Virus record (IMG/VR): IMGVR_UViG_3300025646_000028
Location: 1-64,000 of that record
Length of the DNA stretch: 64,000 bases
Source: a virus
Strand: one strand, 5' to 3'
Below, in pieces: positions 5,703 through 39,298 of the stretch. Each line of letters opens with the position of its first letter. The first letter of the stretch is position 1. Both the position numbers and the translations under genes were made by a program. The notes under the pieces were generated by a model. It searched no databases. It was given only the letters and a program-made list of their open reading frames with translations, and was not told the origin of the DNA.

Positions 5703-5712
5703 GAGAAAAATT

Positions 5713-7550: not shown

Positions 7551-7572
7551 ACGTGTAAGAAAGGAGTATAAT
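7544..7572 (+). promoter_or_regulatory. Possible sigmaA-type promoter for the replication module
   Basis: TAGATA-17 nt-TATAAT, 7 nt upstream of the primase ATG. Confidence 0.4.
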
Positions 7573-7579
7573 ATACTTA

Positions 7580-8512: not shown

Positions 8513-8513
8513 A

Positions 8514-8966: not shown

Positions 8967-8976
8967 ATAACACATT

Positions 8977-10299: not shown

Positions 10300-10311
10300 A
10301 GGGAGACCTGC

Positions 10312-13204: not shown

Positions 13205-13210
13205 AATAAC

Positions 13211-13241
13211 AGCGCTGGCATACCGCTATAAATAGTATGCC
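13211..13241 (+). promoter_or_regulatory. H-type pseudoknot candidate directly upstream of the RBS of the Sak4-like gene
   Basis: AGCG(13211-14)/CGCT(13224-27) interleaved with GGCATAC(13217-23)/GTATGCC(13235-41). Confidence 0.5.
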
Positions 13242-13257
13242 TTAAAGGAGAACTAAC

Positions 13258-14166
13258 ATGGCCTTAATATTACAAGCCGCAACTAAAGTATTAAAACCAC
13301 TTAAAGTTTTATCTTATGGTCCAACGTATAGTGGTAAAACATTATCTTCATTGTACTTAGCTGTAGGTTTAGTTATGAAAATTCGTAACTGCAGTGAAGC
13401 TGATGCATACAAACACATTGTTATGATTGACACTGAGTTTGGTCGTGGTGCTTTATACAATAAGATTGGTTTATATAATTATCTTCGTATTGATCCACCG
13501 TATTATACAGAAAAATTAGTAGATATGATTTCTCAACTTAATGAAATGGACCAAGTTGATGTTATTATTATTGACTCACTCACACATTTCTGGGTTAAAG
13601 AAGGTGGTATCTTAGATCAAAAAGCTGCCAAAGATAAACTTGGTGGTAACTCTTATACTAACTGGCAAGACTTTACTGCTAAGTTTAATAAGATGATTGA
13701 TAGTATTCTTACTTCACCAAAGCATATCTTTACTACAGCACGTGCTAAAACTGATACCGCATTAGTAACAGGTGACAATGGTAAAGCTACACCAAAATCT
13801 TATGGTCTTAAACCTGAGTTGCGTGATAACGTAGAATATGATTTCGATATTGTATTTAACATTGATAAGCAATCTCACAACCTTATCGTAGATAAAGGTG
13901 TACCAGGTCTAAAACCTGTGTATGAGATTGCAACCGTAGATACTGGTAAAGAAATCTATAGTCTATTTAGCGCAGATGCTGTCATCCCTGCTCGTACTAA
14001 ATCGGATATTGCTGATAGTATTCGTGCTGTAGCTAAAGCTAATAGTATGATTCCATTTGTTCAACTAGAATTACGTGGTCGTAAACTGGAAGACTTAGAA
14101 GAATCTGATATGCTTAGTTTAGAAAAAGCTTTACTTGATAACGTCAAGAAAATGCAATCTAAATAA
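13258..14166 (+). CDS. Sak4-like (AAA_24) ssDNA-annealing ATPase
   Basis: YGPTYSGKT, IDTE, IIDSLTHFW and EYDFD motifs; adjacent exonuclease. Confidence 0.8.
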   Translation: MALILQAATKVLKPLKVLSYGPTYSGKTLSSLYLAVGLVMKIRNCSEADAYKHIVMIDTEFGRGALYNKIGLYNYLRIDPPYYTEKLVDMISQLNEMDQVDVIIIDSLTHFWVKEGGILDQKAAKDKLGGNSYTNWQDFTAKFNKMIDSILTSPKHIFTTARAKTDTALVTGDNGKATPKSYGLKPELRDNVEYDFDIVFNIDKQSHNLIVDKGVPGLKPVYEIATVDTGKEIYSLFSADAVIPARTKSDIADSIRAVAKANSMIPFVQLELRGRKLEDLEESDMLSLEKALLDNVKKMQSK

Positions 14167-14168
14167 TT

Positions 14169-14936
14169 ATGGCTAATATCAGTGATGCTTCTGGTGTCAT
14201 TGATATCAAAGGTGCATGGACTGAAGATCAAATTAAATCACTTTCTTATGTTTTATTCTTTCAAAACAATTTTGGTGATTATGGTTTTCAGTTCATAAAC
14301 TTTGATGCGGTGTACCAATCGCTTATTAAAGAACGTTCCGTACCTTTTAGTGGCACAGGTCGTTGGTCATTCACTACTAATTTATCTTCGTTTACTGAAT
14401 GGACAGATCTAACAAAAGATAGTTTTGAATTAGTTGATAAAACTATACCATTACAACAACAGATAAGTTATGCTCAATATTGCAAACATCGAATAAATAC
14501 AATGACAGCTTTAACATCTAAAGATCGTAGTTTAGATATTGTGTTTGCTGATTATGAACCTGGTGTTAGTATGGCATATCAAGCAACAGGTAGTATTGTA
14601 GGTGTTATATCTTATGATAGTATAACTAAAGAAACTGATGCTAGATTTGAATACATAGAAAAAAGTGTAAAAGAATATGAATGTAATTTAAAATTTTTAA
14701 CAGAATTTGTATTAGGTAATGACTTAGATAAATTGTGGAATGTTTGTTATTCTATTATTAGTAGACATTACGGAGACCTTATAAAAATACATAAAGAAAA
14801 TTCAATAGATATTTTAATAGAGTTTGTAATGAAGGATCCTGAATGGTATAACTTAAGGGATTCTGAATATGAAGAAGTACAATCTGTCCCGGAAGAAATC
14901 CAAAACTTCCTATCAAATATGGTGAAGGGAGGATAG
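14169..14936 (+). CDS. Hypothetical protein
   Basis: 255-aa ORF in the operon. Confidence 0.7.
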   Translation: MANISDASGVIDIKGAWTEDQIKSLSYVLFFQNNFGDYGFQFINFDAVYQSLIKERSVPFSGTGRWSFTTNLSSFTEWTDLTKDSFELVDKTIPLQQQISYAQYCKHRINTMTALTSKDRSLDIVFADYEPGVSMAYQATGSIVGVISYDSITKETDARFEYIEKSVKEYECNLKFLTEFVLGNDLDKLWNVCYSIISRHYGDLIKIHKENSIDILIEFVMKDPEWYNLRDSEYEEVQSVPEEIQNFLSNMVKGG

Positions 14937-15200
14937 ATGAATGTCAAAGATTTAGTATCTAAGTTTTATTACGACGCTAGTAAACCTGTTGTATTTATTA
15001 TTAATGATAAAAGCTACACTTATTATGAAGTAGTAGATAATCCTGTATTATTGAAAATGGAAATTAATAAAATAGAAATACAAGGTAAAGTTTATGAATT
15101 AACAAGTGATGATGTTTTACAATATAACTCTCATGTTATACATGATTTTGTTATACCTGATAACGCTCATTACTTTTTAATTAAAATTATTATTAAATGA
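14937..15200 (+). CDS. Hypothetical protein
   Basis: Abuts the previous stop; GGAGG RBS. Confidence 0.6.
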   Translation: MNVKDLVSKFYYDASKPVVFIINDKSYTYYEVVDNPVLLKMEINKIEIQGKVYELTSDDVLQYNSHVIHDFVIPDNAHYFLIKIIIK

Positions 15201-15214
15201 AAGGAGGAATAAGT

Positions 15215-15433
15215 ATGTATTCATATACATTTAATGGTATTACTTATACAGCTAACACAGTTCTTGAACTTCAAATGAAGTTAGAACAAGTTGGATGTAC
15301 TGATGATATTATTGCATTCTTTAATCAAGAAGCTTTAGCATCTTTACAAGATGATGAAGATCTTGCTAATGCAGATATGCAAGAAGAAGTTGTAACAGAC
15401 TTTGAAGATGATGGTTTAAATCAACTAAACTAA
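15215..15433 (+). CDS. Small, very acidic protein (72 aa)
   Basis: AAGGAGG RBS before ATG 15215; about 16 Asp/Glu versus 1 Lys. Confidence 0.7.
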   Translation: MYSYTFNGITYTANTVLELQMKLEQVGCTDDIIAFFNQEALASLQDDEDLANADMQEEVVTDFEDDGLNQLN

Positions 15434-15434
15434 C

Positions 15435-15522
15435 TAAACAATTCTAGGGGGATTGTTTACTTAGGTCAACTATAATGCCCGTCTTATAGTTGGTGTATCC
15501 GAGGTATGGCTACCTGACGGGC
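15435..15522. other. Structured element (hairpin plus pseudoknot) at the convergence of the two arms
   Basis: CAACTATAA/TTATAGTTG stem whose loop GCCCGTC is complementary to GACGGGC (15516-22); additional stems AGGTA/TACCT and TAAACAAT/ATTGTTTA. Confidence 0.55.
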
Positions 15523-15524
15523 TT

Positions 15525-18500
15525 TTATCCTATTACGTTTCTTGACTGTCTCCAACGAACATATTGTCTCCATTGAATATCTTTAACTAATGAATAAGGA
15601 TTTATTTTTGGTTTACGCATACGTCCATACTTATTAAACCAATCACGATAAATATTTTCGTACTTCGCGTATCTACCATTTCTACCGTATCTATATTGCC
15701 GTGGAGTATACTTACCATAATTGTTTATATCATAAGCAAAACCACGGAATGTTGTACCGATAGAAGCTGGACGTGTTTCTAATAACTCTCTAGCTACAGG
15801 AACTTGTGCTGCTTGTTGACGTAAGTTAGTTTGTAACGCCATGTCACTTACACCTGTAACGGTATTAGCTAAACGTCCAACTAATCCTAATGAAGCTAAC
15901 TGATTTAATGCTTCAAATACACTTCGTTTTTCTACTAATGTTTTAACACCACGAAGTATAGGAGACATGCGACCTTCAAATGCTTCTTGTGTATTGTATA
16001 GAATATTCATTACATCAAGTGCACCGTTACCTAAACGTATACCAAAAGTAGGACTTAAAGGAATCCAACCATTACGCATTTGATATTTAATATAATCATT
16101 ATATTCTTTTTCTTCTTCATCAATATATTGACCGTACCAACCGTCAAGGAAGTCAGACATAAATCTCCACCAACGAGGACTGTTTAAACGATGTATCCAG
16201 TTAGTTATTGAACGCACAGGAAAAGAGATAAATGGAATGTCAGCCATTAAACGTTGTTCTAATGGAGATCTTAGACCGTAATTAAACCAGCTTCGTAAAG
16301 ATGCTAATACAGATTCATCAAATGATTTATTGTAAATCATTAAGTTGTATAAAAAGTTTGTAACACGCGCACCGTTTTCAATAAAGGTATTAATACGGTC
16401 ATAACCATCAATTAATGATGCTGTTAAACCTCTGAACGGTCCGCCAAAACCTTTAGCTAACTTACGGTCTTTACGCGCATCTGCAATCATCTTTTTAATT
16501 TCTTCATATGATTTTGAAGACAAATCATTTTCGTCATAACCTTTATAGTTTGCAAATACTTCTGGTAACAATTCAAAATTATCTTTACGCAAGTAGTCAG
16601 ACGTAGCAGCAGTATTCATGAAAGCACTTAATTGTTTTAGTAATGTTTTCTTCCATTTGTTTTTATCATCAAAAATAGCTTTGCCTAATTTAGTAAGTCC
16701 TTTACGAACTTTACCATTTTCATCTCTTGCATCTACGCGTAAACCTGCAACCCACTTGCCGTTAATTTCTTGGTTGTCGTATAGTTCAATGAATTCACCG
16801 AAACGAATGTTACTAACAAACTTAGCTGCGTCATAAAGCACATTTGTATATTTATCAATATTCTTTATTGTTATTAAATTCATTTGTTTTAATAAACGTT
16901 TTACTATAGGTAAATAATATTTAATACGCGGGCTTTCATTTTCTTTAGTTGCCCCAATAGCAACATAACTTTCTAAAACTTCTTTCATTAAACCTAAACG
17001 AGATTCAATTAACTTTGGATTACGTACTTTACTTTTTAGTTCTTTAATAATATCTTCGTAGTGCAAACCAATATTAATAATACTTGCGGTGTGTTCGTCA
17101 CTATACTTTTCATAGTAACTCATAAGTTCTAAAGAAGTCATCGTCATATGGATAAAGTCATTTGACTCTACTGTTTTAGGAAGTATTTGTGCATTGCTAA
17201 ACAACTGATACACTGTATCATTTAAGTTTCTAAATAAGAATGCCGCACTAAACTTAGAAATATTCTTAGATAACAACTGTAATTTATAAGCAAAGAGTTC
17301 GATACCTGCAGGTTTTCTACGGCTAGTGTAAGTAGTTTCCATTGCTTGTATCCATGTATTAAGATCAACAAACCCTACAATAGGTACAGCACCAGTGCCA
17401 TCATCTTTAACTGCGTTATAAAGAGTTCTTAATTCATCTATGCTATTAATCTTAATCTCTTTATAAGTCGGAGTTAAAGCTCTGTTGTCTTTTAATACAA
17501 CAGTCGGATCAATTTGATCATAGACTTTACCGTTGTATACAACCTTGCCACCTTCTTTTTGGTATGCTTCTAATTCTTCTAACGTTTTAAACTTTAACGC
17601 TTTGATTTCTTTTTCAGTAAACTGTGTATACAATTGATCTTTACTGTCTTTTTTAGGATCAAAACGTCTAATGTTGTCTACAATAGATTTATAAGCGCCT
17701 TCATCTTTATAAGGATCTTTAACAATTACTAAACGATAATCTTGTTGACGTGTGCGTAAAAACTCATACACAATTTTTAAACTTACGTCCAGGTTATTAG
17801 GGTTAATCATGTTTGTTAATAACGTAACATCATTAGCCATAGCTAATCTAGCTCTAACTTTAGAACTATCAAGATCTTCTTGTGTTAAATAACGTGGTTT
17901 ACCTACATTGCTGTCGCCTAAACCGTAGCCATCTACTGTACGCAACAGTAAAATTCCGCCACCTAAATTATTAATCAACGCATTTTCTAATGCTTTAGAT
18001 CTTAACTCTTGTTTAGCTTCTTCAATTTGTCTATTTTCTTCTTCTAGTTTAGCGATAGGATCTTCATTATTTTCGTACCATTCTTTAATACGTTCTGTAT
18101 TTAATAACGATTTTTCTTCAGCACTAAGTTTGACTTCTTCAGCTTTGACTGCTTTTTCTAAATCTTTTATTTCTAATTCAATAGCACGTTTACGATTTTG
18201 AAGTGCGTTAAGTTCACCTATACCATTCTTAATTTTATTTTGTAGACGTGCATTTTTTACACGTGGGTTTTGTAGCTTTAATTGCGCACTAGATTTAAGA
18301 TTTAAATCTGCTTGTAGTTTCTTTATTTCTTTAATTCTAGCTATGACTTCTTCTTTTTGAATCAATAATAATTCAATATCTGTTTTTAAATTACCAATAA
18401 ACTCATTGACTTTTGTTGTCTCTGAATCGAATGTTGCGTATTGCAACTTGCTTGTTAAAGCGTTTGTAACTTTATTGTAGGTATCTTTACTTAACTCTTC

Positions 18501-21500
18501 TTGTGTTTTTGAAATAACTTCGTTGTTATTAGTACCAGCTGCACTTACAGCAATTTGTACTTCTTCCATAGATAAACCTTCATCACGAATTTCTTGTGAA
18601 GCATCATCTTCTGGAGAAATAAACACACGGTTACCTTCTTCATCTACAATAAACCAACCTTCATCCATAGCATTAACGTTATTAAAGAAGTTAAAAAATA
18701 AATTGTTAGACTTGTAACGTTTATCAAAAGCTTGTTTAAAGTCAGGATTACGTAGAGCGTAAAACAGTCGTAAAATATTACTCGCATTTTTTACGCTATC
18801 AATACTATTAAAGTTAATATTCTTTGCACCACTGTAACGTTCATTAACTACTTGCACAATAGAAAGACTGCTACGCATAAAACCTATTAGTTTATAGAAA
18901 GGTATGTTAAAGCCATTAAAGAAATTAATACTTTCTTCTAAGTCTTTTTTATTAATAGCATAGTCATTTGGGTTACTTAATGCTTTATTTAATTGACTGA
19001 GACGTTTGTAAAACAGAGTAGTTATTTCATCTGGCATGTATAAGTTTCCAAACACGTACAACTTCAAACGTTCTTTAATTAAGTTCTTAATCGCTGTTTT
19101 TGCACTTGCTTCATCATCATAACTTTCTTGCAAACGTATACGTGATCCAGGGTTTTCTTCATAGTATTCTTTATTTAAACTGGCAGATGTAATACGTTCT
19201 TCTTTTATATCAAGTCTTTCAGTAAAGTCTCGATCAGCGTTAATAGCTCTACCAAGTATAGCTTCTGTAGTGTCACTACCTAAAATAATATTACGCACAC
19301 TTTTACGGGTTGTAATGTTATCTACTTTTCTAGTAAATCGAATATATCTTTCGTTAGAATTTGAATCAATACCATCATGCTTAGCCATGCTAATTGTTTC
19401 TTGTATTAAATTAGACATGTTGTTATTTGCTACACGTTCAATAAAGTATTGATCTAAATAACCTTTTGTTAATTTCTGTAAATCAACCCTTCTTAAAAAT
19501 TCTTCAGCGGCTTTACTACCTCGGAAATAATAAAACAATAATTCCTTTTTAAAGCTAGCACCTAATTCTTCTCCAAGTGATTTGCTATTTCTAAAATTCT
19601 CTATGTAGTTTTTAATAACAGGTTCATTTTTTATTGAAGAGTTTTCTACAAATTCTAAATAGTCTTTAACGGTTATAGTTTCTCTATCCATAAAATTAGA
19701 TAAATTTTCTAATTCAGATTCAGCATCCATCATTGTTTTAACAAGTCTTCTTAAGTCTTTTAAAACATGTTCTGTATCACGTAAAAAATATTTAATATCA
19801 ATTGCAGATTGTTCAGTCCAAATACGTTTAACTTCTTCAACAGTTAGCCCGTTTAAAATATTATAAAGTTCTTCGTAGTTTACATTTTCTGCTTTTGCTT
19901 CGTCTGCTAGTGTCGCTAACAAACTACGTACAGTTACTTCACCTTCAGTATTAGTAGCTCCTATAGCTTTCCAGAATATACCTTGTTTAGATTTATTAAT
20001 GTGTTTGTATTCTGCAATAATTGAAGATGTAAATTGATCTTTACGTTTATTACCTGCGTAATTAACACCGTTTTTAGATGCGCGAATACGGCCTGTTGTA
20101 GATTGTTCTAGTTTTTTAGACAACACTAACAACACTAAACGTTTATAGTATTTACGATAAGCTTGTTTATCTTCTTCAGTAACTCTATTAGTATTATTAA
20201 GAATGTCTTGTTCTTCTTGAGTAAAGTTATTAAGATATTCTTTCTTTAATTTTTCTGAAATAATAATGTCTTCACCGTATTCAAAGCTGTTAAAGTTCTT
20301 TTCAATTGTATAAATTGTATCAATCTCATCTTTAAAAGTGTCGTAATAATCTTTAAGTTTATCAACATTAAAGTAGTCTGATACTTTTTGAATGCTTGTA
20401 TCTTCAACACTAGATACATCATTACCTTCATTGTTTATACGTACATGTGCGTTGACATATAACCTTAATGTATCAACATCATTAGTGTCTAATGGTTCTA
20501 AATTATTTTCTACACTTTTTGCTAGTTGGTTATATGTGTCTCCACTGATTAATCGGTACATTTCTACATTTAAATATTCACCTTCTTCTCCACGAATATC
20601 TTTATTTAAAGTATTTTTACCACGTTGATTACGTCCTACACTATAGCTAATTAATTTTGCGCCACTCATAAAGTGTTGATCGTTTTCTACTTTATCTTTA
20701 GCAAAAAGTTCTCGATTAGCTTTTTCTAAGTACGATATTAAATTACCTTTTTTATCAATTTCTTCATCAATAGAGTAGTAGTTTAAATCGGTAGCTAATA
20801 GTTCTCGTAAAGGAGCATTATCTCCTTCAACATCAGAAAATTTTAATAAACCCATACCCATAGTATCACCGTCGTTATCAGCACCCATCATGTTGTATGC
20901 GTATACGTTAACGTTAACTGCATATGACGTGCTAAAACCTATAGCTTTTAACACAGGGGTAGCTGCGTAATCTTGAACAGGTGAACGGACTGCTAAAACG
21001 TACGTGTATGTTTGGTTAAGTTGGTACCCATCTAATTTATTAGTACCACTTTCTACTGCTAAATGTAACGCACCGTTTTCTTCAGCTAAAATACCACGCG
21101 AGTTTAAAAACTCTATACGTTGTTCTATGTTTTCAAAACCTAAAATAGTGTCAATATATTCTTTAGATTTTTTAGCATTTAAAGGTTCAGTTTTAATTAA
21201 AGTATTACCTTCTTTGCTATCTTTAACTACAATAGCGTCCCAAGCATCTTTAGGTAAAGTTATTTCTCCAGCATCAAGTGTAACGTCCACAAGATATTGA
21301 GCACGCACACCGTCTATACGTTTAAATCTTGATTGGTAGTAAGCACTATTCTTACCACTATACATTTTCTTTAATGCATTGCTTTCAGTATTTTTTACAA
21401 TACGATCAATGTTTTTATTGTAACCTTCCTTAGGACCACTTGTAGTGTTTCTCAAGTACAAGTAGTTTAAATATTGCATACCTTGTTCTCTTACATATTC

Positions 21501-24500
21501 ATGTATTTCTTTCTTTTGGTATGCTTCAGTTAATTTAATTTGTAATTCTTCTAAACGTTCTACTGTGTTTACTTCTTCTTCGTCTTCTAATCCTGTTGCG
21601 TTTTTAATTACAGTCTTAAAACCTAAAGAACGTATATTAGATAACAGATTTAAGTTATCATTGTTAGGACCAAAAACTTTATTAAAGTTATCTAACCCAA
21701 TTTTATTTATTATAGGTATAGAAACAGTAGGCGAAACATAAGTACCTTTAATTGGATTGTTATTACTGTCAACAACGTTACGAATAAGTTTACCTGCTGT
21801 GTTAAATTTAGTTTGTGTAGCCATAGCTTGCGCACTATTTTCATGATCAGCGTAAACGTATGCCAAACCACGAACATATGTAGTTGCAGTTAAATCAGTT
21901 TTAATTAGTCTACGTTCATGTACTTTATTCATGTCGTAGTCTTCTGTAATAAATTGATCTGATTTTGTTTTAATATACGCAGGCGTAATAATTGCCGGGA
22001 CATCTTTTTCTGCGTCTTCTTCTTTAAAGTCACGTAAAATTAAAACGTTATACAATTCAGTATCTTTTGTAGTGTCAGTAATCAAAGATTTAAATTCTTC
22101 ATCATTACTTAATTTATCTTTTATTTCTTTTGAAAGACCTTCTAACAATTCATAAGAATCAAAGCTACTATCCACAAGTAAAACATTGTCTTCTTTATTT
22201 AATAAAGGTCCAAATGTTTTTCTTAAGTAAGGATCTATTGCTTTAAAAAAGCGTAAGGTTCTTGCGGGGATTAATGAGCTTCCATCTTTTTTAGTTTCAT
22301 TAAGTAAATAAGCACGTATATAATTAAATAACATTTCACCGTAAATACCAGCTGTACCACGGCTATTAACTGAGTTAGCACTTGCTACAAATAATGCGCC
22401 ATATGTTTTATATAACCCTTGAATAGGTCTGACAGCTCCTTTAAACCCGGAGTGTAATCCTAACCATGTCTTATTACCATTACCATATTCAGTTGAATAG
22501 TAGAAATCTGCATCAACAGCAATTTCATCTAATGGTATACGTGGATCGTTTGCAAAAGCAATAGGTACAGTAAACCCAAATTGATGTACTTCTGTATCAT
22601 CTTTATAACTCTTATATAAAGATTTACTCATTACATTAGGCATAAAGATTTGTGTATTAGCACTCTTAGTTAATCGCACAAAGTTATTTATTACTTCTTT
22701 GTTTTTAATATACTTACCAGGATTACTTAAAAACGTCGTTAATAATTTTTTACCCGGAGCAACTTTATCAGGAATGTCTCCGTAAATATTATTTAAAAAT
22801 TTAAGGCTAGTATACTTAGCTAAAAGATGCTTAGCACTTAACATAGTACGGATTGCGTTTGTACTTAATAAGAACGGGAAGTTTAAAGCATAACGTGTTT
22901 TATATTTAAGTACTGCACCTGCACTACCTTCAGAGTTTAATTGAAGATCAATATTGTTTTCTTTTAAAAATGCATCATCAAAAGACTCAATGTTATAATC
23001 ATATGTATAATCTGCATTTATTTGATTAACAATAGAGCCCGGTTCAAGTGCTTTATAACGCGACGTTAAACGGTTATATATACCTATATAAATAGTTTTT
23101 AAATCACGTTCTGTTAGTTGTCTTTGCTTTTGATACAATGCAACTTCTGCAAAGAACTGATTACGAATCATTTCAGATATGTTTAGTACACGTAAGTATT
23201 TTGAGTTAGCTGCAAATTTTTCATGAGTTAAAGTTTTTTGATAGATTGCTTCGTTTGCTTCTTCTGCTTCGGTTATTTTTGAAGCTTCTGTTTTAGAATT
23301 AACACGTCTAAAGTTATCTTTATTTTTAATTAAAAATTTAATAAGTACATCAGAAGCGGCTTTACCACTATCAACACCTTTAGCATAGAACACTTCATCT
23401 CTTCTAACATTGGGTAAAATGCTGTATTTAGCCTTGCCATCTTTAGTCCAGTAAAATTTCTTTTCATCTAAAAGATTTTCTAATTCTTTAAATGTAAAGT
23501 CAGAGTCAAATTTAGCATCTTCAGAATTAAAATAAACATTTATATTTTTTTCTAATGTTTGAAAGCCTGCAGTAGAACCACCGTCATATTTTAAATGAGC
23601 AGGAATATATCCGTAGCGTAATTTAATTTCAATTCTATTTTTCTTTGCGTTAAAACTTGCAGTACTAACAAGATTATATTCGTCATCTGAGACACTATAT
23701 AAATAAGTGTTATCAATTGCATTGTCTTGTCGTATAGCTTTAGAAAGTACAGTATTGTGTACAGTTCGTATAGCTAAAATATCATTACCTTTTTCTGGAT
23801 CATCATAATGTACTTTAAGTCCTAAGCGTTTTAACGTGGCGCTTTCAAAAACTTCTTTAAGATCTAGTGTACTACTAGCTATGCTGTCAAACTGTTGATC
23901 ATTCATACGGTTTGAAGGTTTTTCTCCTGTAATTAAACTGTAAATAGTTTCATTACTTAGATTCTCTATTTTAGTTTCTAGTCCAGTAATACTTTCCATT
24001 ACGTTAGAGTACGTTAAAAGTAAAACATTGAGATCAGTTTTACCTGGTAAGTCTGACTCAACATAATTTTCCAACCAAGCTTTGGCTTGTAGTAAACCGT
24101 TTTTGCGATCATTAAGGTACTCATTAAACACAACAAGTTTTGTGCTTGTTGTTTCTTTAATAAGATCTTCAAAACTAATTTGACTTAGCGAAAGATTTTC
24201 TTCATAGTTTTCTAATAAGTTAAGTACTTTAGTAAATGCTGCTGTGTACTTTTGATAGTCTTCTTGGTTTTCAGAATCTGTAATTACACCATACATTTTA
24301 CGTAAGGATATTAAATCGATAGGTTTGTTTTCAAATAAGATATTGTTGTTTGCGATACTAATCCCTTTAAAGGTTTTAATCTTTAATAAGTTTGTAAGAG
24401 CTTCAACTAACTTAGTGTATGTTTGTTTTAAGTAGACTTTTAATTCATCTTGATAATCCTTCAGTATGTTTTTTAAGAATGTTTCAACAACAGCGTCTTC

Positions 24501-27500
24501 TAATTTGCCATCTTCTCTAAGTACTGTTTGCTTAGAAAGAGCTTTAAGTTCTTCATTGATAGCTTTTAAAGCGTCTTCTTTAGTTATAGATTTATTAAGC
24601 ACGTCTAATATACGTGTGTCTACACTTCCTTCTAAAAATACTTTATAGTCTGTAATTTCTTTACCACTACGTATAGCCGCAGCTAAACGAATAATATTGC
24701 TGAGTTTTAATTTTAAATCTCTATCAGCCATTTCTTTTTGAGTTTCTAATAAACCCAACTCTTTAGTAGCTGTAGTACTAGATCTTATTTCTTTAACAGA
24801 ATTTAATGCAATACTTACAGTTTGACCATAACCAGATGTAGTTAATTTATCTATTTTTTGTGCAGAAGAAATAATTTGTTTTACAATTTCATCATCACTT
24901 ATAACTTTTGCTGCAACTTCTTCTCGAAGTCTACTAATAGTTTCTTTGTGTTTTCTTATTGTTTCTTTTTTCTTTTCAATTTCTTTTTGCTTTTGTAGTA
25001 CAATTTCTTCAGAAGTTAATCCTGTTTTTAAAACTTCAGCTAGTGTACTATTAGCAGCTTGTAAAGCATCAAGTATTTCAATACTTTCTTTTATATTTAA
25101 CTCAACATCTTTGTCGTAGAGTTTAACACCGGCAAGCTTTATAGCACGTTCTTTAAGTTCGCTGCGTACACCTACACCTGATGTAGCTCCGTATTTAATT
25201 ACAGCCCCATTTAAAGTTTCATTGTAGTTTTTCTCTACACCTTTTATTAATTTATCTACATATTCAATAATAATTTTTTCAACAGCAGGTGTCTTATTTT
25301 CTAAAGTAATACCTTCCATAAACCGTAAAACTAAATCATTTTTAATTTCAGTTTTAATAGCGTCTGTTACTTTTTTATCAAAGTATTTGGTTAATTGATC
25401 TCTAAGATATTTAATTGCGCCTGTGCTAACATCAAAAATTTGGTTTTTAATATCATCGTTAAGAATATAACCTGTTTGTTCAGAAGCTTTTTTAATAGCT
25501 TGATTTATTTTAAGCGCAGTAATTTTGTTATTAATACGATCTAAATCTTCTTTAATTCTATCTAGTTCTTGCTTAGTAATAAATTCTTTTTTAGTTTCAA
25601 TTGTTTTAATAAGACGATCACTTGCTTCTTGAAGTTCTTTAATATACTCTGTAGTTATTTCATCCGCGTCTAGCTCAGTCTTATCTATTTTATTAAAAAT
25701 AGTTTCAAGACTATTTTCTTCAGATAAATTACGATAGTATTCGTTAACAATTAAATTATCACCGATACGACTAATAAAGTTTTTAATAATATTAAAATCA
25801 AAACGGAAACCGTTGTGTGCAACAATGTCTACATTTGCATCTCCAACTTTTTGTATAAAAGTATTAATAAAGTTGTCGTTATTTTTAACTTGTTTTACAC
25901 GCGCAATTAACTCGTCCATTTTTATTTTAGCTTTAACTTCAAATTCTTCAGGAGATAAGTCTTCTTTTTCCCATTGCTTTTTCCATATGCGTTTTTGTTG
26001 CTCATAAAACTTAAGCATGTTTTCTTTATAACTTCCGTCATCATTAACTCCGTCATAAAATAAACCACTATTAATGTATACATCATTAATAATTAACTGT
26101 TTATCTTTTACAGTAATCATTGTTATTTGATAAGGGGTGTCCTCACCGTTGTAACGGTACGTTTCTAAGTCAATAACAATAAAGTTTTTTGACGCAGGTT
26201 TTTGATGTATATAATTTAATAATGTAATTAAAGAGTCAACAACAGAGTTGTGTAATGCGTAGTCTCCCCTACTCTTTATAAATGTTTTTAAAAATTCAAT
26301 GTCTTGACCAGGAAATTTTTCTTGTACAATTTTTAAAACAATATTAATAACATCTATTTCAGCTGCATCTTTTTTAATTCTAGCTTTATAGTAATGTTTA
26401 AATAAGTCTAAGTTACTTAATTTATCTCCAGCCACTTCTAGTTCTTTATTATACGCAGCTTGACGATCAGCTTTTGTTTTTTCTAAAGCTTCTTTTTTAA
26501 TTTCTAAATCAGCTTTTAAAGTTTCAATGCCTTCTCTTCGTTTAGGTAAATCGTTTAAAGCTTGTTTAAAATCATTAACATTTTTAAGTTTATCTAAAAA
26601 TTGTTTTTTATAACGTTTATAGTTTTTTATTTCAAAGTTGTCTTTACTGTTTGTAACAAATCGGATTAATGAAGCCACTGTTTGATCATCCATATTATCA
26701 ATAGCTTCACCTTCAATGTCTTTGTAAAGGTTGCTAAATAGTTTTTTAGCGTGATCAAGATCAGAAACAGTAGGAACTTTCCCTTTACGATCTAATAAAG
26801 TTTTTTCTAAACCAATACTTCCTATAGTTTTTTCTGCTTTATTAATATACTCTACAAATTTGTTTGAAAAATATTCTACACTTATATTAAATTTATTAAC
26901 TAAAGCGTTGTTAACGTTTGCTAATAATGCTTGTGCAAAACGTAGTTTATCATCTGCTAAATCACTAAAATCAAGTTCAACTTGTTTACTACCAAAAGAT
27001 TTACTAATTGCGTCATAGTTATTAGGGTGTTTAATAAAATTAAAAATTAAATTAAATGCTGTAAGAGGTGTGATATCTTTAAACTGTTCTCTTGTTTCAT
27101 TCTCTATTCTTGCAGCTTCAGCATCTGTAAGCTCTCGTTTTAAGTCACTACTACGTTTATTAATTTTTAATTCGTTGAAAACAGTAAAGTATAAATTTAG
27201 TTTAAATTCTTCTTCACCTTCTAATTTAGGAAGATCAACAGCTTCAGGTATATCAACGATTCTGCGGTTTGCTAAAGTATTAGCGTGGTTTCTAAGTATA
27301 CTTATTTCATTTTGAACAGCTTTTGTTAATACATCTAAACTAATAAGTTTATCGTTTTTAACTACACCTAAATCTTTTTTACCGGCTATACCGAATTGAA
27401 CATTAAAGTCACGGATAAAACCGTATAAAACTTTTAAATATGAAAGTTGTTTGTTGTAAAGCGCTTTATGGCGTTTTGTAATTAACGCTTTTTCTGTATC

Positions 27501-30500
27501 ACTTAACTTAGTAAACGTACCTTTATCGTCTATTGCTTTAAATGTTTTTGCTAAAACAGATTTACTTTCTTCTTTAAAATCTTTAATAATTTTTGATAAC
27601 GTTTCAAGCGCTGTGTCAACGTTTTCAAAATCATCAATTTGTAAAGAAGTAAGTTCTTCTTCGTAGTTTTGCAAGTTGCGTTCATGTATAGCACGTTTTG
27701 CAGCGTACGCTGTATATTTTTTAATTAACTTACCTTCACTATCTCTGCCACGTGCATCACGTCTATCACGTATTTTATTAAGATTTTCAAATACTTTTTC
27801 TTTAATAGTTTTATTATGTAATGTTATAAACTCTGCTTCTGTAGAAATTTTTAATTCTAAAAGTTCTTCTTTAAAAAAGCTATATATAGTTTTAAGTGCT
27901 TCAGTTGGCGGCACACCTTCTCTTCTAAGTTGTAAGTATGTATCCCAATAGAAACTGTTAACTTTGTATTCAACACTATCTTCTATTTTTTTAACATCTT
28001 CAACATCTTTTAAATAAGCATCATACTCTTTTAAATATTTATTATCTGTTTTACTATTTAATTTAAGCAATTCACCTTCTTCTTTTTCTATAAGCAACTT
28101 AATTTCTGCTTCTCTTTGATCCATGTAATAATTGCGAAGTCCTGGGTAGTTTGTAAACAGAGCTTTAATAAGTTCGAGTTTCTTTTCTTTAAAAGTTTTT
28201 TCTTCTTCAGCAATTAATTTATCCGCTTCTGTTATTTTTTCTTGTAAAATAAAGGAAGCTAAATCTGCTTGTTTATATAAATCATCTGTACCTACAATAC
28301 GTTGCTTATTATCATAGGTGTAATAATCAGGTGTTGCTAAACGTTCATTAACAGTTTCGTTACTCGTTTTAATTTTTGGAATAGTAAATAATTTTTCTTG
28401 ATTTTTAATATCATCAGCACGTGCAATAGTTTTGTTTAAACCACTTTGACGTTTTTTAATTTCGTCATTAAGTATTTTAATAGCTAATTCTTCAGCAGCT
28501 TCACGCTTACTAAGTATAGTTGTTTTAGCACCAACAGTTGCTTTGTTACCATAAGCAACATCAAAGGTGTCGTAGAATTGATTTGGATTATAAAAGTTTT
28601 CAGAGCTTTTAATAAATTTTTGAATTCTTAAACCCATGTTAATTGTTTGTTGTTGCTCTAACGTAAGCTCTTCAAAATCATTTTTACCTTGTAGCTTTGC
28701 TAATTCTTTTTTCTTTTGAAACTCAGTAAGACTTTCATCTTGTATAATACGTTTAATCACACTTGTAATTGTCTTGTACTTATATGATTTATATTTAATA
28801 TCATCTTCAAATTGTTTGCTAACATTTTCAACAATTCGATTTTGTATTTCAGGAATATCTGTATGATCAACAAAGCGTGCTAAATAAATATAGCCTAAAA
28901 TACCTTTAACAAATGTTTCATTAAATTCTACAATTTTATTATTAGTAGCAGACACTTCTATAATTTTGTCTGTTAGTGCTTTAATTTCAGCATCAAATAA
29001 TTCTGATAATTCTTCTGGAGATTTTTTAGTTCCTGCATTATCTAAAATATATTTTTCTTTTGCATCACGTAACAGCATGTTGTAGTAATCAATAAATGTA
29101 TTAAGACTAGATGTATCTTTTTTAAACAAACCTACAGCAGCTGTAATATCTCTTACACGAATAAACTGGCCAGGTTTAAAATCTTTCTTTAATTTTTCTA
29201 ACAAGTCAGTCCATGTAATACGTAAGCTATTATATAATTGATTAGCACTACCAACATTTTTATTAGTAGCCATGTTTTCTGCCATCATATCGTTGATAAA
29301 TTCTTTACGCATTAACATTAATTCATATATACGAGAACCAACAAAACCAGCATCACCTTCTTTAAAGATAGGTTCATATAAAGTTCTTTGTGTATCTGCA
29401 GCTACAAGTTTAATATTATTTTGTTTATAAATAATTCCATTAAAATCACCGGAGTATTCTTCATTATCTCTAAGATTAGTATCGTCCAAAATAATACGAC
29501 CAAGTCTATCGTTATAGTATGTTGTTTGACGATCAATTTCTCTTAGTATAGAGAACCCGCGATTAAAATGAAAGTTAACACTATTAGTAATAGCATTACC
29601 TTCTCCTAGTAAATTGTTAATACTAATTGTTTGTAAGCGTAAGTTGTTATCTTTTTCACGGATTAATTCAAAATCACGTACAGCTTTTATGTCTTCTAAA
29701 CTAACAGTATAATTAGGTCTCTTTAGTACGTTGCGTATGTATTGGTCTTTATGGTAATTAATAAACCATATTAACAAATTAGCTTTAGTAAAGTCATCAC
29801 CTTCTGCGCTAGGATCATTTGTTTTAATATGTGCGTTTATAAAATGCTGAATTGTTTTGTATTCACCTTCTAATATTGAAAACACTTCATCACGACTAAT
29901 ACCAAACTCTTTTAGCATTCTTACAATTTCTTCTGAGTCTAAATTAAAGTCATTGTTTCTAATAACATTTTTAAAGTAATCAAAAAATCTTGTACTTGTT
30001 TCTAAAAGATCTATCTGATTAACTTTAAAAATTTCTTTGTAAGTTAATTTAGTCTTTTTAATTTTGTAACGCAACGATTTAATTCTTTGCAGTTCATTAA
30101 TATACGTGTTAACTTTTCCTGGTACTTTGCCTTCTTCTCCAAATATAGCTTTATCTTTTAAAGCATCTTCTCCTGTAAGATAAACACCTTCATTTTTCTT
30201 TGTAGTAGCAAGCGCAATCATTGTTTGAAGTTGATCTTGCGTAAACCCTTCACTTAAAATTTGTTCTTTAAGAGCTTCTGTTTGTTTAATAACACGATCA
30301 AGCGTAACTACTTTAGGTACATATTGATTAGAAGTGCTTGTAGTTTTCGCATATAAATGATCTGTAGCAGTTTCAATAACGTCTCCTGCAAACACAGTCA
30401 AAAGTAAACGATCACTTTGATCAAGCTCAATATTAAATTTTTTACTTATATGTTCACTTATATACTCATCGATTTTAACATCTTGTATTTCTTCTAATGT

Positions 30501-33500
30501 ACCTTCTTTTATTTGTTTTTCTACTTCAGCTTTTGATGGGAAGTCATAGAAAAACATAAGACTTAATTTATCACCACGGAAAATTAAATGTTCCATATTA
30601 AAACCGTAACGGTCTTTTTTATTTGTAATTTGCTGCGAAAGTCTTAAACGCTTTTCTACGTTTGCTAACAAAGCTGCTTCTGGTTTTGAAATAGTTTTGT
30701 TTCTTTTTTTAATTAATAATTCATCACGTGTAGTTTGTAATAAGTTTAAGTAATCAACAGCGTTAAATCCATCTAGTTGATCAGCTACTCGCTTGTTCAT
30801 GTATTGATTAATTGAAATTAAATAAGACTTAAGTACGTATCCATAAACAATATGTTTTACAATATCATCCGGACTCTTAAAGTCTTTACGTGTAGGATCA
30901 CTATTATAAATTTTTTCTGCAAGACTGTATATACCTGAACCGTTTTTAGGCTTTAAGTCTAAATCAAAGTTTTTAAGAGGTATAATTTTTTCTAACTGTG
31001 CATACAGTTCATCTAATGTAATACGATCTTTATACCAATCTTTCCATGCGTTTTTTAAACTACTTAAATGAGAATAGTTAATTGTGTCTTTATTATGTTT
31101 AGCAATAAGTTTATAGTGACGTTTACGAGCTTCTTGTATAATGTCGTAAAAGTTTTTTAAATGATATTGTTGCGCATTTAAAAGACTTATACCTTCATCT
31201 GCGCTACCGTATCTGTTGTATGCAGAGGCTTTAAATAACTCAAGCATACTTTTCTTTCTTTTCTTATAAGGGTCTCTAAAGACTTTTTCAAGATCGGTTA
31301 CTATAGGACTTGTTAATTCTTTATTAATTTCTAAGAAAGATAAAACATTTTGTGAAGCGGTATCTTCGCTGAACTGTGTTTTAATGTGCTGTTGAATTAT
31401 AGGTATAATTTTTTTGTATGCGATTTTGTTTGTTTTTTCAATGTGTTTTACAATTCCATAAATAGAGTTCTTTAATCTAAGTATTTCTGAAGTTGTTTCA
31501 GGTTTTAAAACATTGTAGTAATTTATTTTATCTACTAAAGGATCATCACCATAAGTTTTTTGCATGTATGTTAATGCTTTTATAATCTTATCAAACAGTC
31601 CTCGTTGTACTAAGTTAGCTACTAAAACCGGGTCGTTTAAATCTTTTTTAAGCTTACTTAAATCGTAACCTTTCTTAATAAATTTTCCTTTAAAGAAGTT
31701 AACACCTATAGTTTCTAAATCGTAATCACCTTTGATGCGATCATAGAAATCAAAAAACATATTATTAAGTTTAGCTTCTTCTTGTATACGTCTAAACGTT
31801 TCGGTGTTAAATAAATTAGTACCTTCACCGTAGCTCTTTAAGATCGGCACAAAACCTTGTAAGTTCTTTTTTGTATAACGTTGTTGATAAAACAAACTTA
31901 ATTTATTTAATAACTCACTAGCTGTAACTTTGTTTGTAGTATCTAAACGTTCTTTGTAAATAAGGTTTAAATCTTTTAACCACAAATCTACAATAACTTT
32001 TTTACCTTGCACGTTTAATACTTCAGGTACAGGTTTAATTGTTTCATCTCTAACAGTGTAACGATCAACCATATCAAAGTCGTCTTTATTATTTTTTTGG
32101 ATATCTTCTATTTCATTATATTTAGTTTCAGATAAAATAAACACTTCACTAATGTTGTATTCTTCTCCGTTCATAACACGTTTATAAAGAGCTGCTAAAC
32201 TTTCGTTGCCACCAAAACTCCATTGTTCGTCAGGTACAACAAAAACAGCTGTACCATCTTCTGTTACAATTCGAAGATCAGCATTTTTTGTTTGCTCATT
32301 AGCTGTTAAGTTATCTTTAGCTTTATTAAATTCTTTTTTGTCATTTTTACCAAACACATGTCTTACAAAATAAAGATTTAGTTTAGGAATACCAGGCACA
32401 TCTGTTCTATCTTTAAACACTTCTCGTCTACGATAAAGACGATCTGCACCTGTAGGATCAATGCCAAGTACGTAATCTTTTAAATCTGTATCAACGGTAT
32501 TGTTAAAGTAGTCTTGTGCTAAATCATCGTCTGCTTGCATGCGAGTATAAATTGTGTCAAAGTCTGCAAATGCATCTAACTCAATGCGTTTATTAATTTC
32601 TGTGTAATGTTTTAAAACAGCTTGAAGATTACCAATCTTTGTTGTTACTCTATTTACGTAACGTTTATATCTTGGTGTATCTTTATCTTCAATATTTTGT
32701 TTTTTAAATGTAGCTAGATCTTCTTTAGCATCAGCTATTCTTTCTTCTATGCGAGTAAGATTACTGTCTTGCGCTAAACCTTTTACAGTTTTACGATCTT
32801 TGAAAAAGATGTCGCGTATAATTTGTTTAATATTACTGGGGCTAACAATGACACTTTGTTCATTACCTTCAGGACTTTTAATCGTGTAGCCTTCAAAGTC
32901 TTTTGGATTAATTTGACTTAATTTTAAAAGCGTTAAAAGTAATAAAGTATTATTATTACGCAACACACCTTTGTTATCTAATAAATCTACGGTAAATAAA
33001 TCTTTAACAGTGCCGTCTTTGTTAGTTGCTTTAAAAGTGTATGTTTTGGGTAAACGTGTATTACCTTTGTTTTCTTCTGCTGTATAACGTTGAGCCGCTC
33101 TAAAAATATAATCCGCAAACGTTCTAAATCTATTATCGTAAATAGCTCTGAAATCTATTTTATTTGTATCTAAGTCTGTTTCAAATATTTCATTGACTAA
33201 TAATAAACGTTGTCGTAACTCTATAACACCTGGATCTGAAAACAAGTTGTACAACTCTTCAGTAGCTCCTGGTTGCTTCATGAATATTTCTTTGTCAATA
33301 CTAAAAGAGTTGTATGTTAGTAATGTACCAAACTCTTGTATTAACATATCGTAGCTTGCAACAGCTGCGGCTTCTAAACTAGTTACTTTTGTAGCAGGAT
33401 CTAATGCTGCCATACGATTACCTATTGTAGTAACTAGATTTAAAACATCTCTTCTTGTAACACCATGAATAAAAATTAAATCAAACATAGTATATTCAAT

Positions 33501-36500
33501 AGCTTTATTCATTTTTTCTGTTTGGTATTTAAAAATTATTTCTCCGTCTCTTTGTTCGATACGGTTAAAATTATCAAAGCTTCTTAACGTAGTTTTATTT
33601 GCATAGTCTTCTTGATAATATTTAGACACCGCGTTTAAAAGCTTAAACATAATATGTCCATACTGATTAGAACGCGCACCTTCTTTAGCTGACGCAAGGT
33701 CTTTAAATATTTCTCTTATTTCTTGTGACTCTGCAATAGCTTTTTTACGTATAGAAGGATTTAAACTAGCGTTATAATCAGATATGCTTTTCTTTAAACT
33801 ACTTTCAAATCTTCGAAGATCAACAGTTAATTCGTTTAAAGTGTCTAAAAATAACGATCCGTATTTATTTTTATTTAAAATAGCATGTACTACTTTATTT
33901 GTTTCTCTTACAATATCGTTTAGTTCTGTAAACTTATTTTGATCTTCACTTATTTTAAGTAAATATTTTCTAGCATCAATATTAGTTGCATCTGCTCCTA
34001 AACGTTTCTTAGCAACATTTATTAATGCACTTTTAAACATTGCAGTATAACTACGTTGATCACCGATTCGTTTAGTCAAATTAACGCGTACATCAACTTT
34101 ACCATTTTTTAAATAAAGCTTACTAATTTCTTTAGCAATAGTTTGACGGCTGTCTTTGCTTTTAATTTTTAAATCAGCAATTGTAAGCAGCTCCGGATAT
34201 TTCTTTATTAACAACGCAATTTTAAAACTAAACACATTAACTTGTTCTTCGTACTCAGAAGTACTACGTGCATTATTCTTTAAAAGCTGTAAAATGTTAA
34301 CGTCTTTACTATTTTTAACATCATAAAAAAGTGACATGTTTAAACTGTATTGGATAAAAGGTGGTAGTAAAACAAAAGGTTGTTTTAATTTTAAAACTTT
34401 ACCACGTCCTTGTGCTTGATCTCCAGATAAACGTACAACACGATTTGGATCTAACAAGAATTGTACAATATTAACTAAAGCAAGTTCACGTCTTTGGTTT
34501 ACACTGCTAGGTAATTTTGAAATATCATAATCTAAAGCAGTACGAATAGTAATAGGTCCGTACTTTGCGTCTTTAATTCTAGTAATAACATTTTCACTAC
34601 GTTGATCTTCGGTTAATTTTTTATTAAACTCACTGTCGCTAGCAGATTCATCATATAAAGAAACAATGCGTTCTTTTTCTAAACGATGTTGTTCTCTTTC
34701 TGCTTCAGCTTTATTAAAACGTTCTTCTGTTTGAACACGAACACCTTCATCTTCAGGTGTAAGATCATCTTCCGCGTTCATTTTAAAACGTACAATAGAT
34801 GCGTCGCGTAAACCTTTAATGTCAGGTTCAGCAATATTAATTAATTCATCAACAAATTCTGACTCCATTAAGTCATTAACAATACTTGTAGCAATTGCTT
34901 TATTTTTTAAAGCCTGTTGTATATCGTATTTAGAAATATCGTCAGGTAATATTTCACTTATACTAGAGCGTTTAAATAAAGTAAGTTTGTTTTTATCGTG
35001 GTCAACGTAATCATATAAATATGTTTTAACATATCTATAGATAGGAGTATTTTTTAAATTAATTTCAAATCTATTTCTAATATCATCAAGTAATTCTTTT
35101 TGATAGTTAGTTAAGTCGTTTGTTGTTTTTGCAAAATCATCATCAAGTTCTTTTAATAACTCCGCTGCTTTTTTAAATGCCAAAACAATAGGATTAGTAC
35201 TGCTGTTTAAATCTGTTTTGTTTTTATACAACTTCATTTGTTCTTGCATAACATAACGATAAAGCATGCTTGTTGTTAAATTATCTGCAAGAATTGTTGT
35301 AGTGCTTGTAGTTTTTATTTGACTTACAGCTTCAATAGATGCGTATATCTTTCTAAGCGTATACGATTCAAGTAGTTTATCTTTATCTGCTTGATCTAAA
35401 TTAGATTCATTAATGTAGGCAACTAATGTTTTAACACGGTTAGCTTTAGATAATGCGGTCCATTGTTTTAAGTCAATATCAAAAAACTTGTGGTTAAAGT
35501 TTAATAAGTCTTCAAACACGTCTTTACCTAAATACTGATTTAAAAGTTTATTAACTTGTGTTTGAAAATTATCTTTTAATACAATACCAACATCGTTTAT
35601 TTCTTTAGCATTTTTATAGATATCAATAAAAAATTCTTTTGTAATGTTTTCATTAACATCAACGGTAACTTTTTTACCGTTTGCATCTGTATAATCAATT
35701 TGAAATTTAATTCCATTTAAAAAATTAACGCGTTGAATTTCATTCATTACTTCTAAAGCACGATCTAATTTATCGTTAACAAACCCAGCTATAAGTTTAG
35801 TAGGGTCTTTTTCTCCAGCACGAATACGTTTTTGCAGTGCTCGATAATCTTCTCGATTAATTTGAATCTTACCTTTAATACGTTTGTTACCTGAAGTATA
35901 ACCTTCTAATTCTTTTCTTGCAGTTTCAAGTTTATCAAGCTTTGCAATAACAGCATCAATATCTTTTTTAATAGTTTGATAACCAGCATCGTTGTTTAAA
36001 TATTCAATATCAAATTTACTTTCTAGTTCTTTTTGTTTTGTTTGAAGATCAGTAAGTTTTTTGTTTTCATCTTCAATGTCAGATTTAGTTTTAGTTAATT
36101 TGCCATCTAATTTTTTAAATTCTAGTTCTAAAGATTCGCTAGCCTTTTGTGGAATCAAATCATTGATATACGCTCTAAATGCATACAGCATACTTAATGT
36201 ATTGATTGCATAATCATCTGCACGTATGGTAGCTAGGTTTAAAATGTTTAATGCGCTTTCGTAATATGTAATATATTTTTCGTACACAAGATCATTTTTA
36301 ATCATCATTTCATAATCTAAAAATGCTGCGCTTAAAGCGTTACGACGCAATGTTTGATCTTTCGAAAGATTTGTTTCGCCACGTAATTTGTTTAATTCGT
36401 CAAGGTACTGATCTTTGTTAGCCTCCGTAATTGTTATAGCGGCTTGATTACCAATTTTTACATCAACTGCTCTCATTGTAAAACTACGTCTATGATTACG

Positions 36501-39248: not shown

Positions 39249-39276
39249 ATTATAGCATAAAAAAAACTATCGTAAA
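39249..39276 (-). promoter_or_regulatory. sigmaA-type extended -10 promoter of the giant gene
   Basis: TTTACG-16 nt-TATAAT with TG extension (TGCTATAAT), 12 nt upstream of the ATG. Confidence 0.7.
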
Positions 39277-39298
39277 CATCACGATAGTTTTCTTTTTT
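39259..39298. terminator. Intrinsic terminator (potentially bidirectional) ending the capsid operon
   Basis: AAACTATCGT/ACGATAGTTT stem flanked by A and T tracts. Confidence 0.75.

Follow-up and report, generated by a model that had tools for sequence, protein, structure and literature searches.

A giant cysteine-free protein of an uncultured podovirus-like phage harbors a predicted single-chain two-barrel RNA polymerase

The window, i.e., the whole stretch of 64,000 nucleotides of viral DNA analyzed here, has a G+C content of 28-35% and carries a giant ORF on its minus strand (positions 15525..39236). This ORF codes for 7,903 amino acids with no internal stop and no cysteine, closes the late (structural) arm on the minus strand, and takes up about one third of the genome of this uncultured phage. 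As random frames at such a base composition close within tens of codons, we consider the ORF to be real. From its number of residues we estimate the mass of the protein at roughly 0.9 MDa. Its relatives are 5,094 to 7,998 residues long, and the five source-named members of the family are all labeled "hypothetical protein." Cysteine is also absent from the virion/structural ORFs, whereas the cytoplasmic proteins of the phage differ in this respect.

A terminator-like hairpin followed by a T-run (about 39258-39288, minus strand) lies ahead of the start of the giant ORF. It is followed by TGCTATAAT (39249-39257, minus strand), 13 nt ahead of the ATG, and no Shine-Dalgarno sequence is present in this region (39249..39288). 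Host-type extended -10 elements are found at the operon starts of the late arm, one of them ahead of the giant gene. TGnTATAAT sequences number 8, versus 6.9 expected. Sigma-70-like sites are neither enriched nor depleted beyond chance. No repeated motif was detected on the plus-strand arm.

The initial annotation had proposed that the giant ORF contains a complete single-chain two-barrel RNA polymerase, on the basis of eight motifs. All eight were recovered where it had placed them, once each and in the single 7,903-residue frame, with the same residue numbering for K5589, K5599, R5626, R6084 and D6120/D6122/D6124. The module corresponds to residues 5530-6700 (19137..22649, minus strand, as are all features of the ORF described below), as modeled with AlphaFold2 (AF2) and supported by fold matches. 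A conserved block just upstream of it, at residues ~5440-5530, makes its N-terminal limit provisional. The first double-psi barrel lies in a beta (Rpb2)-like part (residues 5530-5859; 21660..22649), which harbors FGFTV...EIAV (residues 5553-5574; nt 22515-22580), the two-lysine motif GNKTWLGLHSGFKGAV with K5589 and K5599 (residues 5587-5602; nt 22431..22478), ASANSVNSRGTAGIYGE with R5626 (residues 5618-5634), and VRGLAYVYADH (residues 5788-5798). MYSGK...ITLPK (residues 5958-5996) overlaps the start of the beta' (Rpb1)-like double-psi barrel (residues 5973-6154; 20775..21320), which is characterized by R6084-x-P, in the VRSP motif (residues 6083-6086), and by an Asp triad. Motif and conservation suggest that this triad, D6120/D6122/D6124 in MGADNDGD (residues 6117-6124; nt 20865-20888), binds Mg. 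QETISMAKHDG (residues 6612-6622; nt 19371-19403) is found further downstream. The Escherichia coli strings used for comparison had been quoted correctly, as checked with the K-12 rpoB and rpoC sequences, which contain GDKMAGRHGNKG, PSRM and FEDS. The Arg-to-first-Asp spacing is indeed 36 residues in the giant protein (R6084 to D6120) versus 35 in RpoC (R425 to D460).

Conservation was analyzed with an alignment of 22 sequences that share 23-54% identity with the window. No substitution occurs at R6084, P6086, Q6088, D6120, D6122, G6123 or D6124 (the triad being D591, D593 and D595 of the model), and conservation reaches at least 90% at K5589, K5599 and R5626. The D-x-D-G-D sequence, which the initial annotation expected to be kept in homologues, is present as DNDGD or DTDGD in all 12 protein representatives that cover the motif and at 18 of 18 loci. 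That the catalytic residues are invariant or at least 90% conserved among such distant relatives argues that the motifs represent more than chance resemblance. Two further elements of the module can be proposed. The candidate bridge helix is a helix of 50 residues in the AF2 model (residues 6354-6404, model residues 825-875; 20025..20177) with the invariant residues R6383, K6388, G6395 and K6399. The candidate equivalent of the trigger loop is a helical hairpin (residues 6601-6645; 19302..19436) formed by AF2 helices at model residues 1072-1091 and 1098-1116, with a conserved AKH sequence at its tip. Model residues I1086, K1090 and H1091, the last two being K6619 and H6620, are at least 90% conserved in the 22-sequence alignment. 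Both candidates fall inside the range that the fold search aligned to largest subunits, at the level of ranges.

The AF2 model of residues 5530-6700 has a mean pLDDT of 86.4 and a pTM of 0.84, and a two-barrel fold is predicted. One barrel carries a presumed metal-binding D-x-D-x-D loop (beta'/Rpb1 type) and the other, which faces it, two Lys and an Arg (beta/Rpb2 type), both of which are hallmarks of the two-barrel superfamily. In structure searches with the model, DNA-dependent RNA polymerases gave the highest and most numerous matches, and the top ranks comprised RNAPs only. The best matches were subunits of cellular, NCLDV and jumbo-phage RNAPs. Both halves of the module matched the right type of subunit, in the right order, with the "A" and "B" chains of the matched entries taken by us, following entry convention, to be the largest and second-largest subunits, respectively. 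Chains of largest subunits, and chains of CDC48-N, which contains a double-psi beta-barrel (DPBB), aligned to model residues 448..625. Model and conservation thus support the initial proposal of a single-chain two-barrel RNA polymerase module, located at residues ~5530-6700, in which the beta-like barrel precedes the beta'-like barrel with its Asp triad. We infer that the module is active in transcription.

Comparison with named polymerases, which the initial annotation had also called for, gave matches to RNAP subunits at the level of fold, but sequence alignment did not follow: hhalign of the family profile, A2, with E. coli RpoC placed only DNDGD on the NADFDGD (DFDGD) stretch, at a nonsignificant E value of 0.61, and with RpoB it returned only an irrelevant match. 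The other sequence searches gave similar results. With the giant protein, Pfam yielded only sub-threshold noise (E ≥ 0.027), PHROGs no family, tblastn against 50,697 phage records nothing, and the ESM Atlas no usable match; no tape measure family was matched in Pfam or PHROGs. A phmmer search of the PDB with residues 5401-6800 gave two irrelevant matches (E ≥ 0.81), and profile A2 gave one (E 0.74), recovering no RNAP chain, phi14:2 gp66 or QDE-1. The Pfam RNAP families (RNA_pol_Rpb1/Rpb2) were matched by none of the 14 A2 members at E ≤ 1. A pattern search of genome contigs returned 167 matches, with no relative and no prophage or host clue among them. We found no published description of the family, which may be among the 23 RNAP families aligned by Chaban et al. 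(PMC10770324).

Beyond the polymerase module, the giant protein has a conserved N terminus, DnaQ-like motifs (about residues 4300-4600) and a C-terminal region of 700 residues (15528..17627). The latter is its best conserved part, in which 13 relatives are 30-70% identical to the window. The AF2 model of the C-terminal domain is poor (pLDDT 65.7) and gave no match in BFVD at E ≤ 1e-3. The weak BFVD rows, with titles such as polyvalent-protein domain or tape measure, are nonsignificant and carry no weight, and neither the PDB profile search nor PHROGs returned anything for this domain. The DnaQ-like region matched only TREX2 in the PDB, with an E value of 1.3.

The nearest cultured phages are the Paenibacillus phages API480 and SV21, whose TerL, capsid protein and DNA polymerase are only ~29-31% identical to those of this phage, in line with the earlier suggestion of a new lineage. 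At the sequence level, the phage thus possibly represents a new, uncultured podovirus-like lineage, whose contigs are ~75-82 kb long. Sequence searches found no giant protein in API480 or SV21. The largest gene product of API480 (1,631 residues), which is cysteine-free too, is not significantly similar to the giant protein (best E value of 0.2 by BLASTP; E 0.066 by hhalign, at a probability of 0.8%). The proposal of an N4-gp56-type capsid was not borne out: tblastn with the capsid protein gave four matches, namely, API480, SV21, one Stenotrophomonas phage and a phage from faeces, and the portal resembles those of SU10 and P22. The phage also has tail-fibre genes and codes for its own primases, helicase and family A DNA polymerase. 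Of TerL, capsid protein and DNA polymerase, only the last also matched 11 Bacteroides intestinalis phage records at the BLAST level. At that level, there was no crAss-like phage among the four capsid matches or among the TerL matches listed. The label "crAss-like phage" was rejected for want of support, the portal, TerL and capsid protein being suggestive of a relation to podophages of Paenibacillus rather than to Crassvirales. A Bacillota host is plausible, given the nearest relatives, the GGAGG ribosome sites and the TGnTATAAT elements.

The best overall explanation, and in our judgment a likely one, is that the giant protein contains a single-chain two-barrel DNA-dependent RNA polymerase that would be packaged, injected and used to transcribe the first phage genes. 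The predicted fold and the conservation argue for the enzyme; its activity and packaging are deduced more indirectly. The giant protein is probably packaged in the particle and injected, as suggested by its gene coming last in the late structural operon, by its cysteine-free composition, as in virion proteins, and by the failure to find a second polymerase; its own promoter is counted among these indirect grounds as well. No partner nonvirion RNAP was found: PF00623 matched none of five related phage records, with a positive control in 14 of 14 genomes; the records of the group are 66-82% complete by CheckV. PF00940 matched none of the five either, but its control matched nowhere, so that this search carries no weight. 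In the proposed mechanism, late expression from the gene's own promoter would supply the whole protein, which would enter the head as an internal or ejection protein and leave it with the DNA through the short tail. The module would then transcribe the first phage genes without the host RNA polymerase, and the host enzyme would serve the late arm with its extended -10 elements. Within the module, the two lysines and the arginine of the beta-like barrel would hold the substrate and the RNA end, a helical connector would join this barrel to the beta'-like one, in which D6120/D6122/D6124 would bind the catalytic Mg, and the long bridge-like helix and the helical hairpin would come thereafter. We conjecture that the N terminus, the DnaQ-like motifs and the C terminus serve packaging, envelope passage and possibly nucleic-acid processing.

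An active two-barrel polymerase might have a main task other than early mRNA synthesis, such as making primers, copying RNA like QDE-1, synthesizing DNA like archaeal PolD, or acting as a genome-pulling motor. We regard this as unlikely, because DNA-dependent RNA polymerases dominate the fold matches, transcribing enzymes carry the R-x-P...DxDGD and K...K...R motifs seen here, and the phage has its own replication proteins. It is even less likely, in our opinion, that the polymerase is active but not packaged, working in the cytoplasm late in infection, e.g., as a late-gene polymerase or as a "polyvalent" counter-defence protein. Packaging is deduced from gene position and composition, and the low-confidence C-terminal model with nonsignificant rows including "large polyvalent protein associated domain" (best E 6.7e-3) would fit such a role. 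However, the late operons, including the giant gene, start with host-type extended -10 elements, an infection could not be started by an enzyme made late unless it also had an early copy, and the lack of cysteine fits virion proteins rather than cytoplasmic ones.

That no sequence-based method supports homology would be expected if the module were an inactive structural derivative of a polymerase or a chance resemblance. We consider this very improbable, since it is the residues needed for catalysis that are invariant among such divergent relatives, the two-barrel model is confident with RNAPs only in its top ranks, and its halves match the right subunits in the right order. A more ambitious extension of the packaged-polymerase reading, conceivable though doubtful, is that the family is a deep, unrecognized fused beta-beta' lineage nearer to the multisubunit core than to the QDE-1/crAss/YonO clade, and that one cysteine-free chain combines an ejection conduit, a DnaQ-like nuclease and a polymerase, perhaps pulling the genome in. 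If so, one protein, to which a third of the genome is devoted, would be the whole take-over machine of a podovirus with contigs of ~75-82 kb.

Among the relatives of the enzyme responsible for transcription in all cells, single-chain two-barrel polymerases are the simplest. To our knowledge, only a few families have been studied, namely, YonO, crAss gp66, P23-45 gp96/gp64 and QDE-1. The family described here escapes Pfam, PHROGs and PDB profile searches, yet the catalytic residues are retained in both of its barrels. Since the closest folds are those of subunits from cells, NCLDV and jumbo phages, it could inform the relation between fused and split cores. With it, the phages that bring along a polymerase of their own would come to include an uncultured podovirus-like group; the protein is lacking in the closest cultured relatives of this group, which are phages of Paenibacillus. 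How a protein of 7,903 residues would be packed and passed through a short tail is a physical puzzle, and a fragment of ~1,200-1,300 residues should be tractable for expression, assay and structure determination.

The multisubunit RNAP core (beta/Rpb2 plus beta'/Rpb1), including the split AR9 and phiKZ nonvirion RNAPs, consists of two or more chains, versus one here. No flap lies between the two beta-barrel motifs here, which are separated by 12 residues, versus ~247 between FEDS and GDK in E. coli RpoB; this agrees with the deletion initially noted. Unlike canonical multisubunit subunits, the giant-protein polymerase has no Pfam RNAP match and is embedded deep in a much longer chain. QDE-1 is a eukaryotic polymerase of fungal RNA silencing with RNA- and DNA-templated activity, and the profile search of the PDB detected no sequence relation between it and the giant-protein polymerase. 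The predicted fold of the module is two-barrel, in contrast to the T7-like right-hand fold of the N4 type, which was discarded. The crAss-like virion RNAPs resemble the module, in our reading, as single-chain two-barrel enzymes in very large, late-gene-encoded proteins of short-tailed phages. Packaging and injection for early transcription are a crAss-like feature that we likewise propose here. Giant size is common to both, as a review (PMC10136315) has crAss-like RNAP genes reaching ~6,000 aa. The family profile found no PDB chain indicating a sequence relation to phi14:2 gp66, whose motif is reported to be DFDxD, versus DNDGD here. A predicted phi14:2 structural protein came only at rank 19 in BFVD with the module model (E 1.1e-2), and gp66 was not among the best 50 of either VIA list, an absence that is no evidence against a relation. 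Chaban et al. (PMC10770324) describe P23-45 gp96, of 5,002 residues, as a virion RNAP fused to the tape measure of a siphovirus, with the RNAP at the N terminus, versus in the last third of the protein here. Together with the crAss-like sizes, this makes the earlier statement that the giant protein is several times longer than known single-chain examples an overstatement. A tape-measure fusion of the gp96 type was rejected, given the position of the RNAP at residues 5530-6700 of 7,903 and the lack of a tape measure family match in Pfam or PHROGs. Unlike P23-45, the phage has a P22/SU10-type portal and tail-fibre genes, with no recognized tape measure and no partner nonvirion RNAP found. Polymerases of this kind are already known from crAss-like phages and P23-45 gp96; the one described here comes from another lineage, podovirus-like and uncultured, and its family has so far gone unannotated.

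Sequence-based searches of the 7,903-residue giant protein detected no relation to any polymerase. The RNA polymerase motifs that the initial annotation had read in this protein are all present at the residues and nucleotides assigned to them, and the E. coli strings given there for comparison are correct against K-12 rpoB and rpoC. The distance from the Arg to the first Asp of the beta'-like barrel is indeed 36 residues in the giant protein, versus 35 residues in RpoC. The proposed loss of the flap is consistent with the sequence: the beta-barrel motifs lie 12 residues apart, versus about 247 in RpoB, with no flap-sized insert. AlphaFold2 modeling of residues 5530 to 6700 with a 22-row alignment yielded a mean pLDDT of 86.4 and a pTM of 0.84, and the fold matches of the model divide cleanly. 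The 50 matches that Foldseek listed from the PDB are all entries for RNA polymerases; their statistics are marginal (best E value 4.1e-4, TM 0.1 to 0.18). Matches in BFVD comprised NCLDV RNA polymerase subunits and several phage proteins, among them a "structural protein" of Cellulophaga phage phi14:2 at rank 19.

Relatives of the giant protein are few. HMMER searches of 1.84 billion representatives returned no more than 16 proteins at E ≤ 1e-3. Eight of these fall below 1e-30, and most of the eight are 6,661 to 7,998 residues long; the short matches look like pieces from contig ends. A word-indexed search of 5.8 billion clusters identified 12 giant clusters without Pfam domains; the five named ones among them all bear the label "hypothetical protein." DNA scans of IMG/VR and metagenomes yielded 18 loci, including several contigs counted twice; the contigs reach 82 kb in length. 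In the polymerase region these loci share 22 to 56% identity with the window, and at every one an open frame of 2,204 codons or more runs off the 5′ side of the fetched stretch. No relative was found among prokaryote genomes (185,579 species, one genome each).

The D-x-D-G-D motif is present in 12 of 12 representatives covering it and at all 18 loci, the variant DTDGD occurring once in each set. In the 22-sequence alignment of the polymerase region, the invariant positions include R6084, P6086, Q6088, D6120, D6122, G6123 and D6124, together with G5790 and D5797 in the VRGLAYVYADH block, R5978 and Q5980 in the region-C-like block, and R6383, K6388, G6395 and K6399; conservation is 90% or higher at K5589, K5599, R5626, K6619 and H6620. 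The giant protein has a conserved core of two barrels in which every signature residue is present, and we infer that this module is enzymatically active as a DNA-dependent RNA polymerase. A second DNDGD, mildly odd given an estimated chance expectation of ~0.03 such pentamers among the ORFs, sits in a low-complexity stretch of a small, charged ORF located between the genes for the portal and the terminase (63443-63898, minus strand).

A full-length comparison with five other giant proteins shows identity peaks at residues 1 to 600, 4201 to 4600, 5401 to 5600, 5801 to 6200 and 7601 to 7903. The protein is best conserved in its C-terminal 700 residues (15528-17627, minus strand), especially the last ~450: identity there is 30 to 70%, in relatives that are only 22 to 54% identical in the polymerase part. 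This region ends in a basic, aromatic tail; its AlphaFold2 model was poor (pLDDT 65.7), and we found no fold or family match for it. Strings resembling the ExoI and ExoII motifs of DnaQ/DEDD exonucleases (…IDLET…, …AHNGFRFDF…) occur at residues ~4356 to 4480 (25797-26171, minus strand), inside the 4201-to-4600 peak. A phmmer search of the PDB with this region returned TREX2 alone (E value 1.3), and the DnaQ-like domain is an unconfirmed candidate.

The phage record is linear, with 72,764 bases and 79% completeness (CheckV), and the window covers most of it. The plus-strand arm (about 1-15,450) carries replication genes, encoding an AAA+ clamp-loader-like ATPase, a primase, an SSB, a DnaB-type helicase, a family A DNA polymerase, an exonuclease and a Sak4-like protein. 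The minus-strand arm encodes an SU10/P22-type portal, a 1,333-residue unknown protein, a 1,319-residue tail fiber, the major capsid protein and, just outside the window, the large terminase. Its last gene is the giant ORF (15525-39236, minus strand), which takes up 32.6% of the record length. Residues 537 to 570 of the 598-residue capsid protein (39708-41504, minus strand) match CBM_5_12 below threshold (E value 1.3e-4, 22.4 bits; cutoff 26.2), and this C-terminal stretch may have been joined to the capsid protein as a decoration that binds carbohydrate. The A+T-rich left end contains C/G-rich noncoding islands with small hairpins (289-513, 1920-2121 and 2999-3077) and, at about 51-77, three tandem copies of a 9-nt unit; these could be regulatory sites or early noncoding RNAs. 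Positions 1-5000 gave no match to Rfam at E ≤ 0.1, and the window contains no tRNA.

Several features argue, less firmly than for polymerase activity, that the giant protein is packed in the virion and injected. Its gene closes the late structural arm and is preceded by a hairpin resembling a terminator and by a TGCTATAAT element (39249-39288, minus strand), the latter 13 nt before the ATG. The protein has no Cys in 7,903 residues, as is true of most late-arm ORFs, including frames of 1,321 (tail fiber), 390, 307, 285 and 405 codons; Cys makes up 0.3 to 2.2% of the replication ORFs. No Rpb1-type match was found elsewhere in five related records. Finally, crAss-like phages and Thermus phage P23-45 are published precedents with exactly the same logic (PMC10136315 and PMC10770324). 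A search with PF00940 for a T7-like enzyme gave no match, but its control also matched nowhere, making it uninformative. Another extended −10 element lies at 43185-43193 (minus strand), before an ORF starting at 43178. Since the elements end 7 to 13 nt ahead of the two start codons and the giant-gene ATG lacks a Shine-Dalgarno sequence, leaderless or near-leaderless mRNAs are suggested. Of eight TGnTATAAT sites, six are minus-strand sites in the late arm, and the replication arm has none on its plus strand. Their total does not exceed chance, and thus the distribution is compatible with, but does not demonstrate, a program in which the host enzyme serves the late genes.

The nearest cultured phages for the terminase, capsid protein and DNA polymerase are API480 and SV21, unclassified Paenibacillus podophages (29 to 31% identity), both of which lack the giant protein. 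The structural module of API480 (MK533143.1) ends with a cysteine-free, 1,631-residue hypothetical protein (12564-17459). DxDxD is missing from it, its similarity to the giant protein is not significant, and it could represent a polymerase-less counterpart of an ejection protein. We found no published description of the giant-protein family, the supplementary alignments of 23 known RNA polymerase families lying outside the search. Membership of the crAss-like virion RNA polymerase or P23-45 family is not demonstrable: the giant protein has no detectable sequence relation to either, its polymerase occupies a different position in the polypeptide, and the terminase, capsid protein and DNA polymerase of the phage are closest to those of the Paenibacillus podophages. 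A single-chain two-barrel RNA polymerase within a giant phage protein is, as a kind, already known from those systems.
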